Assembly: GCA_017444345.1 (NCBI GenBank)
Contig: JAFSWW010000080.1
Coordinates: forward strand, 20,570-84,569
From: Synergistaceae bacterium
GTDB taxonomy: Bacteria > Synergistota > Synergistia > Synergistales > Aminobacteriaceae
Length of the DNA stretch: 64,000 nt
Direction: 5' to 3'
Positions 31,282-32,224 of this stretch are shown here, piece after piece (within the stretch, counting starts at the first letter, position 1; every line of letters begins with the position of its first letter). A program made the translations under genes and the position numbers. The notes below the pieces were generated by a model. It had not been told where the DNA came from, made no database searches, and saw nothing but the letters and a program-made list of their open reading frames with translations.

Positions 31282-32022
31282 ATGAACAAAAAAAGTATAG
31301 GAATATTATATCTATGTACAGGCGATTATTATTTATGCTGGAAAGGTTTTCACGAATCTTTTGAGAAAAATTTTTTGCCCAATACAATAAAGAATTATTA
31401 CGTATTCACAGATCAAGTTGAAAATATCCCCGAAGATGAGCGCGTAAAAGTTTATTATATAGATCATTTGCCTTGGCCTTTAGTTACTTTGCTGAGATTC
31501 CACGTTTTTACTAGATTCAGAAAAGAAATAGAGAATAATGACTATTTAATGTTTGCTAATTCTAATCTGGCATGTTCGCAAATAGTTACAGAGGAAGAAT
31601 TTTTGCCCAGTGAAGAACAAGAGATCTCTGCAGTTATATGTCCTTGGGCATGGAATACAAAAGCTAGATATTATTTCGCATATGAACGCGACAAGAAATC
31701 AACTGCATATGTTCCTTATAACATAGAAGGACGTTATATAATGGCGGCTCTTTTCTGCGGACGTACAGATAAATTTTTGCAGATGTCAGAAATTCTGCAA
31801 GCTAGAATTAATAGAGATTTACATAATAAAATAATTGCTAAAATTGACGACGAATCATACTTTAACAGATATGTACTTGAAAATCGTAATTTTAGAATTC
31901 TTACTCCGGCTTATCTTTATGTACCTTTAGATAACATGCCATTTGAAAATAAGATTACTGTGCGCTCAAAAAGTGAATTATTTAACGTTAATTTAGCTAG
32001 GGGGGGGGACTCCTTGCAATAA
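31282..32022 (+). CDS. GT6-family glycosyltransferase (ABO blood-group transferase-like, bacterial NxN type)
   Basis: It is collinear by eye with bacterial GT6 enzymes as I recall them (BoGT6a type): GILYLCTGDYYLCWKGF, YYVFTD, PWPLVTLLRFH, FANSNL (NxN in place of DxD), ERDKKSTAYVP, EGRYIMAALFCG, DDESYFNRY and TPAYLY. Confidence 0.8.
   Translation: MNKKSIGILYLCTGDYYLCWKGFHESFEKNFLPNTIKNYYVFTDQVENIPEDERVKVYYIDHLPWPLVTLLRFHVFTRFRKEIENNDYLMFANSNLACSQIVTEEEFLPSEEQEISAVICPWAWNTKARYYFAYERDKKSTAYVPYNIEGRYIMAALFCGRTDKFLQMSEILQARINRDLHNKIIAKIDDESYFNRYVLENRNFRILTPAYLYVPLDNMPFENKITVRSKSELFNVNLARGGDSLQ
32000..32008 (+). repeat. Homopolymeric G9 tract inside the 3' end of the GT6 gene
   Basis: The sequence ctag-ggggggggg-actcc encodes R-G-G-D at codons 240-243 of 246. 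It is the longest G/C homopolymer I noticed in this AT-rich window. Confidence 0.95.
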
Positions 32023-32170
32023 CTCAACTAAGAGCTTTAAATCATTATCATTCCTTCCCAAAATTATAAGAGAACCTTTATTAGCTGTAAAAAGTAAAGT
32101 TAGAGAATTTATTTTTTACCGTATATATGACCTCCTTGCAATAAGAGACTCGATTTTATGCCGGCATTTA

Positions 32171-32224
32171 TGATTCATTCACAAATTATTCATACTGATA
32201 TGTTATGAATCACTATGATATAAT
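32171..32224 (+). promoter_or_regulatory. Candidate promoter/operator of the RND operon
   Basis: An inverted repeat tgattcat (32171-32178) / atgaatca (32205-32212) sits just upstream of an extended -10 tgatataat (32216-32224). Further tgaatYa-like half-sites follow. Confidence 0.4.

Follow-up and report, generated by a model that had tools for sequence, protein, structure and literature searches.

A poly-G tract where catalytic domain and C-terminal tail meet in a GT6 glycosyltransferase gene: a probable contingency locus in a Synergistaceae bacterium

Introduction

The 64-kb stretch of DNA analysed here, from the metagenome assembly of a ruminant-gut Synergistaceae bacterium (contig JAFSWW010000080.1; hereafter the window) carries a glycosyltransferase family 6 (GT6) gene whose reading frame is broken, close to its 3' end, by a run of nine G (G9). 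Does this run act as a reversible switch of the C-terminal part of the enzyme, or is the gene decaying, recoded during expression, or simply misread? Phase-variable glycosyltransferases are textbook matter in a few pathogens (Neisseria, Haemophilus, Campylobacter and Helicobacter). A preliminary description of the window had proposed that the tract toggles a GT6 protein between a short form and a form with an extended tail. The comparison of homologues, of further assemblies of the same gene and of sister alleles makes it probable that this GT6 gene is a slipped-strand contingency locus with tail-bearing (G8/G11) and tail-less (G9, G10) forms.

Bacterial GT6 enzymes of the NXN type are composed of a catalytic domain at the N-terminus plus a C-terminal basic-hydrophobic-basic (BHB) membrane-association domain, and the construct of the Bacteroides ovatus enzyme BoGT6a used for crystallography, which is devoid of the BHB region, is fully active in vitro (PMC3516806, PMC3961637).

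Results and discussion

Reading frames around the poly-G tract

The tract is placed between A31999 and A32009 and is the sole G/C run of at least 8 bases in the window (40% G+C), in keeping with the scarcity of such runs pointed out previously. The runners-up are a G7 at position 7262 and a C7 at position 15687, each within an intact open reading frame (ORF). Taken on its own, G9 is only mildly unusual for the window, because the decay of run lengths (~0.25 per extra base) extrapolates to ~0.17 G/C runs of at least 9 bases per 64 kb. In the present frame the product ends in ARGGDSLQ, with the stop four codons past the tract, and both the coordinates and the ending given in the preliminary description could be reproduced. 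A resemblance between the last residues of the G9 product (GDSLQ) and a GESLA segment in P0002 was judged to be due to chance.

The removal of one G (G8) or the addition of two (G11) gives access to a frame that reads TPCNNSTKSFKSLSFLPKIIREPLLAVKSKVREFIFYRIYDLLAIRDSILCRHL, that is, 54 extra codons up to a TGA, exactly as first reported. The chance of such a stop-free opening at the local base composition is estimated at ~0.03, which agrees with the earlier statement that its length is unlikely to be fortuitous. The third frame (G7/G10) is closed after 20 codons instead of the about 24 counted before, and the G10 product comprises 262 aa, the last 20 of them unrelated to the tail. Since the tract is found ten residues after K230, which corresponds to K231, a residue important for catalysis in BoGT6a, it marks the point where the tail joins the catalytic domain.

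The extended frame encodes a conserved C-terminal tail

Most of the homologues (39 database entries) are 278–291 aa long, ~40 residues longer than the window product. Their tails, aligned with the G8 form, end in the motif RD(S/T)(I/L)L.R(H/K)(L/I), in which the Asp at position 289 is invariant. A hidden Markov model (HMM) derived from the homologue tails alone matches the G8 frame (E = 3e-4) up to the last position of the profile, right before the stop, and finds no match in the other two frames. The G8 product and P0047 (291 aa), its closest full-length relative, align from end to end with 57% identity (E = 4e-118), and their last 12 residues, LAIRDSILCRHL, are identical. In the DNA downstream, the homology to two other contigs (L172 and L175) restarts just after, or within, the end of the full-length frame. 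Because both the tail HMM and the alignment with P0047 match the G8/G11 frame, these comparisons mark this frame as ancestral and G9 as a truncated state. The comparison of orthologues called for earlier therefore singles out the extended-frame tail as the conserved C-terminus, and the initial picture of a short protein with an optional extension holds as far as the tract toggles the tail, but has to be turned around, the extended form being the full-length ancestral protein and the form of 246 aa its truncation.

In the tail part of the AlphaFold2 (AF2) model, residues 245–257 form a disordered linker that is followed by a single helix (residues 260–291). The net charge of the tail is +6 in the window and ranges from +1 to +11 across the family. 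Its maximum hydrophobic moment (0.54) falls within one standard deviation of that of shuffled sequences (0.47 ± 0.11), even if some homologues are clearly amphipathic. For this reason a strongly amphipathic tail was discarded and the tail is described here as cationic and helical. With these features the tail matches the published descriptions of BHB-type membrane-association domains; this domain is present only in the G8/G11 frame and is missing in the G9 product.

Fold and active site of the GT6 enzyme

The product of the ORF as it stands is a member of GT6 (Pfam PF03414, E = 3.2e-21, 75.9 bits with the cut-off at 25), with BoGT6a as the best solved relative (E = 8e-39); its score with NCBIfam NF041524 (213 bits) lies under the subfamily cut-off of 250. 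The AF2 model (predicted local distance difference test score, pLDDT, 86.6) displays a confident GT-A core at residues 1–240. The top match of this model in Foldseek is BoGT6a (4CJ8; E = 3e-25, target-normalised TM-score 0.88, 35% identity); human GTA/GTB and bovine alpha3GT come next. The NXN motif (N93-S-N95), the catalytic D190-E191 pair and K230 occupy invariant columns of the alignment and pair with N95/N97, D191/E192 and K231 of BoGT6a, respectively (PMC3961637). All of them are retained in the 246-aa G9 product.

The residues W189, H190 and H122, which in BoGT6a contact acceptor or donor and stack on the acceptor or bond to it (PMC3516806), are not kept in the window enzyme, where they correspond to I188-D189 and C120. 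The window enzyme and P0047 probably constitute a divergent GT6 subfamily that acts on a different acceptor. The xDDES sequence is common to the window enzyme and to the intact P0047 (ARVDDES), and is therefore a trait of the subfamily and not a sign of decay. At the level of the individual motifs, the near-invariant WHDES of GT6 reads IDDES in the window (31840–31854, codons 187–191) and VDDES in P0047, and the HPG motif reads CPW (31639–31647, codons 120–122), P0047 keeping the H of HP.

Tract length in other assemblies of the gene

A look-up by exact sequence among ~15 billion predicted proteins retrieved the G9 product from three European Nucleotide Archive (ENA) contigs (L001–L003, the first identical to the window) and from a metagenome-assembled genome (MAG) at NCBI (protein MBQ7561287.1, Synergistaceae bacterium). 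L004, an independent contig of another sample, supplied the G10 product (262 aa, P0040). These contigs carry 3–6 substitutions in the flanks with respect to the window, and the sole difference within the gene is the length of the tract. The records of the window allele thus amount to five (four ENA contigs and the NCBI MAG), one being the window sequence itself (L001) and some possibly deriving from the same assembly. The length heterogeneity that the preliminary description looked for is therefore seen between assemblies as G9 versus G10, but the full-length G8/G11 states do not appear in the records of this allele.

Sister GT6 alleles and their tracts

The gene is found in a conserved slot, bordered on one side by a TM1266-like gene and a radical-SAM gene of the hydrogenase-maturation type (hyd) and on the other by a membrane fusion protein and resistance-nodulation-division (MFP-RND) efflux pair. 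In related ruminant-gut Synergistaceae the same slot is filled with other GT6 alleles, several of which contain a poly-G tract at other codons (Table 1). Two of them are known in a full-length state, P0042 (G8) and P0047 (G12), and the G11 of L173 is in frame as well. In the tandem arrangement listed in Table 1, the contig with the intact copy (L170) and a contig with a shifted copy (L086) show 0 mismatches over 5.9 kb outside the tract; L005 and L086 are the same NCBI contig. At the codon-50 site, the run is interrupted in L085 (GGTGGAGGGG) and the gene is intact. P0026, a protein of 161 aa, resembles a further product shifted at the codon-148 site and was left uncounted.

In a non-redundant set of Synergistaceae sequences, the GT6 genes make up 7.6 kb and contain all five G/C runs of at least 8 bases, against none in the remaining 90.8 kb (binomial p = 3e-6). 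No such run was seen in the GT6 genes of other bacteria (0 of 160 loci, among the matches listed). The metagenome scan, which provided the background for tract frequency, returned, among the matches listed, distant GT6 only (at most 47% identity) and no additional copy from this species. The window's own genome is absent from the results of the genome scan, with a best match of 54%, in part since one of the search patterns demanded WHDES, which is lacking here. The origin of tracts at three codon positions, their polymorphism and the occurrence of both in-frame and shifted states make up, as far as can be read from these sequences, the comparative signature of contingency loci.

In public annotation the shifted GT6 genes are listed as short or split hypothetical proteins (MBQ7561287.1, MBQ6772456.1/MBQ6772457.1 and MBQ7155230.1). 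On clustering at 90%, a shifted fragment of 163 aa (P0017) represents the cluster that holds the intact 291-aa protein, and the closest full-length relative was therefore hidden from the first homology search.

Weighing of the alternative explanations

Several observations weigh against a contingency locus, and part of them would fit a decaying gene, in which a fixed frameshift has inactivated an unneeded GT6 copy or deleted its tail and the differences in length are neutral drift. The full-length state is found in none of the five records of the window allele, whose two recorded states (G9 and G10) both lack the tail; neither the G8 nor the G11 product appears in the exact look-up among ~15 billion proteins, nor a near-identical full-length variant in the homology search. 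The slot itself is subject to turnover: copies may stand in tandem, the one in L172 is 3'-truncated, and the position of GT6 with respect to the neighbouring element shifts. The residues W189, H190 and H122, which contact the acceptor in BoGT6a, are replaced (PMC3516806), and with such departures at I188/D189 and C120 the activity of the enzyme is uncertain. Moreover, the gene is placed outside any obvious surface-polysaccharide cluster, and the lengths of the tract are those of consensus sequences from metagenome assemblies, several of which come from one ruminant-gut study and are not fully independent. Against decay, the catalytic ORF is intact over 240 codons, the 54 codons of the tail frame are free of stops and still homologous to other tails, and the altered xDDES recurs in an intact relative. 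Relative to the P0047 allele, the ratio of nonsynonymous to synonymous divergence (dN/dS) amounts to 0.17 for the catalytic part, a rough value with dS (1.68) near saturation, and to 0.45 for the divergent part of the tail, equally rough at this high dS; the former is consistent with purifying selection on the catalytic part and speaks against decay. Finally, decay does not predict long G-runs at three codon positions in sister alleles that include intact in-frame states. Judged on these sequences, decay is not favoured and appears unlikely.

The predominance of G9 (four of the five records) could also be understood if the tract were fixed and both proteins were produced from it at a set ratio, either by slippage of the RNA polymerase or by +1 ribosomal frameshifting. 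The G-run permits the re-pairing of tRNA-Gly in shifted frames, and its AGGGGG sequence resembles a Shine-Dalgarno stimulator, as in +1 frameshifting of the prfB type. However, the length of the tract varies in the DNA itself, from G8 to G14 across the window allele and the sister alleles. The slippery site is not conserved at a fixed length, most homologues being without a tract at the window site, and the tract-less homologues consist of one continuous ORF with no conserved recoding signal. A stimulatory structure was not found either, no search aimed at one having been made. Programmed recoding is thus considered improbable, and still less credit is given to an error of sequencing or assembly in a gene that would in truth be full length (G8). 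Homopolymer lengths are certainly error-prone, and the removal of a single base would restore the conserved protein; nevertheless, the same G9 is found in four contigs that differ in sample and assembler, the fifth shows G10 and not G8, and in-frame and out-of-frame lengths recur at the sister tracts across ENA, NCBI and Logan assemblies. The confirmation of the tract asked for in the preliminary description points accordingly to a real G9, an error being unlikely.

A slipped-strand contingency locus

The contingency locus remains the probable explanation, and the earlier proposal of a poly-G tract that toggles the C-terminal tail of GT6 gains support from the homologue tails, from the G9/G10 polymorphism and from the sister tracts with intact states. 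According to it, slipped-strand mispairing in replication would lengthen or shorten the poly-G tract by one or more G. At G8 or G11 the cell would make an enzyme of 296 or 297 aa in which a metal-independent NXN catalytic domain is joined by a flexible linker to a cationic BHB helix. At G9 the protein would stop at 246 aa, and at G10 it would continue for 20 unrelated residues and end at 262 aa, in both cases with the catalytic core whole and the anchor lost. The anchor is thought to keep the enzyme at the inner membrane, beside its lipid-linked glycan acceptors, and its loss would abolish or strongly reduce one terminal sugar decoration of the surface in part of the population. Such variation would be heritable yet reversible, and might be useful against phages, grazers or host antibodies. 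The tract, its three frames, the conserved tail, the differences in length between assemblies and the polymorphic sister tracts are seen in the sequences, whereas we infer that the tract slips and can revert, what the tail does and which phenotype results.

Since the tail-less construct of BoGT6a is catalytically active in vitro (PMC3961637, PMC3516806), a switch other than a simple ON/OFF is plausible. A more far-reaching version, which we put forward only tentatively, is that the tract makes one active GT6 alternate between a form tethered to the membrane and one free in the cytosol, so that glycosylation is redirected or retuned (for instance, from lipid-linked to soluble acceptors) and not abolished, and that the tracts in this slot belong to a modular, convergent 'phasome' for blood-group-like epitopes in rumen Synergistaceae.

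Comparison with known systems

The closest parallels are the phase-variable lipooligosaccharide (LOS) glycosyltransferases with poly-G or poly-C tracts of Neisseria (lgtA, lgtC, lgtD and lgtG) and Campylobacter jejuni (wlaN, cgtA and cgtB). They share with the window gene an intragenic G/C homopolymer of ~8–14 bases in a stand-alone glycosyltransferase gene, whose length shifts the frame and differs among close strains, and the presence of sister genes with tracts of their own. They belong, however, to other glycosyltransferase families and other phyla, and their tracts usually truncate the catalytic domain and result in a clean ON/OFF switch. In the window GT6, by contrast, the tract comes after the catalytic core and costs the enzyme only its membrane-association tail, in a gut commensal of the Synergistaceae and in a system known here from sequence alone.

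The fucosyltransferases FutA, FutB and FutC of Helicobacter pylori, which make blood-group-like (Lewis) epitopes and are switched by poly-C tracts, offer a second parallel. Their C-terminal amphipathic basic helices act as a membrane anchor, and on truncation the enzymes become soluble and keep their activity in vitro. They differ from the window enzyme in family (GT10/GT11) and in the position of the tracts, which are found in the 5' part or the middle of the gene and not at the junction with the anchor.

BoGT6a (PDB 4AYJ, 4AYL and 4CJ8) shares with the window enzyme the metal-independent NXN type of GT6, the fold, the lysine (K231, K230 in the window), the D-E pair and a basic-hydrophobic tail at the C-terminus. 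The crystallised construct, with 246 aa and no tail, is moreover like the G9 product (PMC3516806, PMC3961637). In contrast, the tail of BoGT6a counts 17 aa versus ~50 aa in the window, no homopolymer tract is reported for it, and its acceptor-contacting W189-H190 and H122 are replaced by I188-D189 and C120.

A full-text search of the literature for GT6, or Synergistaceae/Synergistetes, together with phase variation or homopolymeric tracts retrieved no relevant report, and a contingency locus new both for GT6 and for the Synergistaceae is the best reading of the data. This points to commensals of the rumen altering their blood-group-type surface epitopes in the way known from pathogens, with phages, protozoa or host antibodies as the probable source of pressure. 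In-frame and out-of-frame lengths both occur naturally and are visible from public metagenome assemblies alone. The unusual feature of the window tract, the removal of the tail with the catalytic core left intact, amounts to an experiment of nature on what the membrane-association tail of GT6 does. A practical lesson is that annotation pipelines turn shifted GT6 genes into short or split 'hypothetical proteins'.

Table 1. Features of the GT6 gene in the window and poly-G tracts of sister alleles in the same slot (positions are those of the window; codons for the sister alleles).
Feature	Position	Strand	Remarks
Full-length GT6 frame, broken here by the G9 frameshift	31282..32173	+	296 aa at G8, 297 aa at G11
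GT6 ORF as it stands with G9	31282..32022	+	246 aa, tail-less catalytic domain; identical to P0001 (MBQ7561287.1)
Poly-G tract, G9	32000..32008	+	codons R240-G241-G242, boundary between catalytic domain and tail
Linker and cationic helical C-terminal tail (BHB-type, predicted)	32009..32173	+	in frame at G8/G11 only; stop TGA 32171-32173
13-nt direct repeat CTCCTTGCAATAA, copy 1	32010..32022	+	gives the TAA stop of the G9 frame
13-nt direct repeat CTCCTTGCAATAA, copy 2	32132..32144	+	overlaps the jump in identity to L175 at ~32138
RGIG3196-type genome, copy 1 of two tandem GT6	codon ~53		G8 in L170 (intact 287-aa P0042); G9 in L086-L089 and L005; G10 in L171
RGIG3433 (L006)	codon ~50		G10, frame broken; G8 or G11 would restore it
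P0047 allele, nearest relative of the window gene	codon ~148		G12 intact (L175); G14 (L176) and G10 (L177) shifted
L173	codon ~151		G11, in frame

Turnover and recombination at the slot

The comparison of the window with L175, the contig that carries the P0047 allele, shows 85% identity over 29296–31890, no blastn alignment for 31891–32137 and 97.6% identity from 32138 on. The leap in identity at ~32138 places a probable recombination junction within the final 12 codons of GT6, where copy 2 of the 13-nt repeat lies. L003 and L004, which come from different samples, both stop at window position 32156, and this shared contig end suggests co-existing strains with a common downstream segment encoding the efflux pump. 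The number of GT6 copies in the slot also varies: a single one, two in tandem with 75% identity (L086/L170), or a 3'-truncated one (L172). Compared with L086/L170, L172, L173 and L006, the slot (window 30904–32258) appears as a hotspot of GT6 turnover.

The recurrence of the stop-supplying motif noticed in the preliminary description corresponds to an exact 13-nt direct repeat (CTCCTTGCAATAA), with a spacing of 122 nt between its copies and a weaker copy at 31134–31145. Copy 1 reads LLAI in the G10 frame, the same as copy 2 in the tail frame. It may be speculated that, in a cell with G10, a deletion between the repeats would link GGG in frame with LLAIRDSILCRHL, joining the catalytic domain directly to the terminal motif; no sequence with such a deletion between the repeats was found. 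Rfam returned nothing in the whole window at the gathering thresholds, nor in 30850–31300 with E values up to 1, and no known RNA element is located near the tract. A scan for promoters and terminators over 30850–32350 gave counts at chance level, with no terminator in 32023–32173, and does not discriminate between a short and a long end of the gene.

An element of ~320 nt (window 30894–31216) precedes GT6 in the window and follows it in other loci, and is conserved in L172 (85.6%), L173 (76%) and L006 (70%). The frame of the 60-aa ORF annotated in it on the plus strand (30931..31113) is not conserved. On the minus strand, an ORF of 27 aa (31011..31094; MKGLADFIRAVAMLVKAVADLINSLKK), with the ribosome-binding site GGGGGTGA, is conserved in four of the four loci and has conserved hairpins on either side. 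The element with this ORF has no match in Rfam or NCBIfam; its product may be a small amphipathic peptide, perhaps of a type I toxin-like gene.

Further G9 runs were observed in genes flanking unrelated GT6 loci, namely at position 99 of L012 (a Treponema MAG), position 6141 of L044 (a Lachnospiraceae MAG) and position 5039 of L133 (a metagenome contig), and these may be additional contingency loci beside surface-glycan genes.

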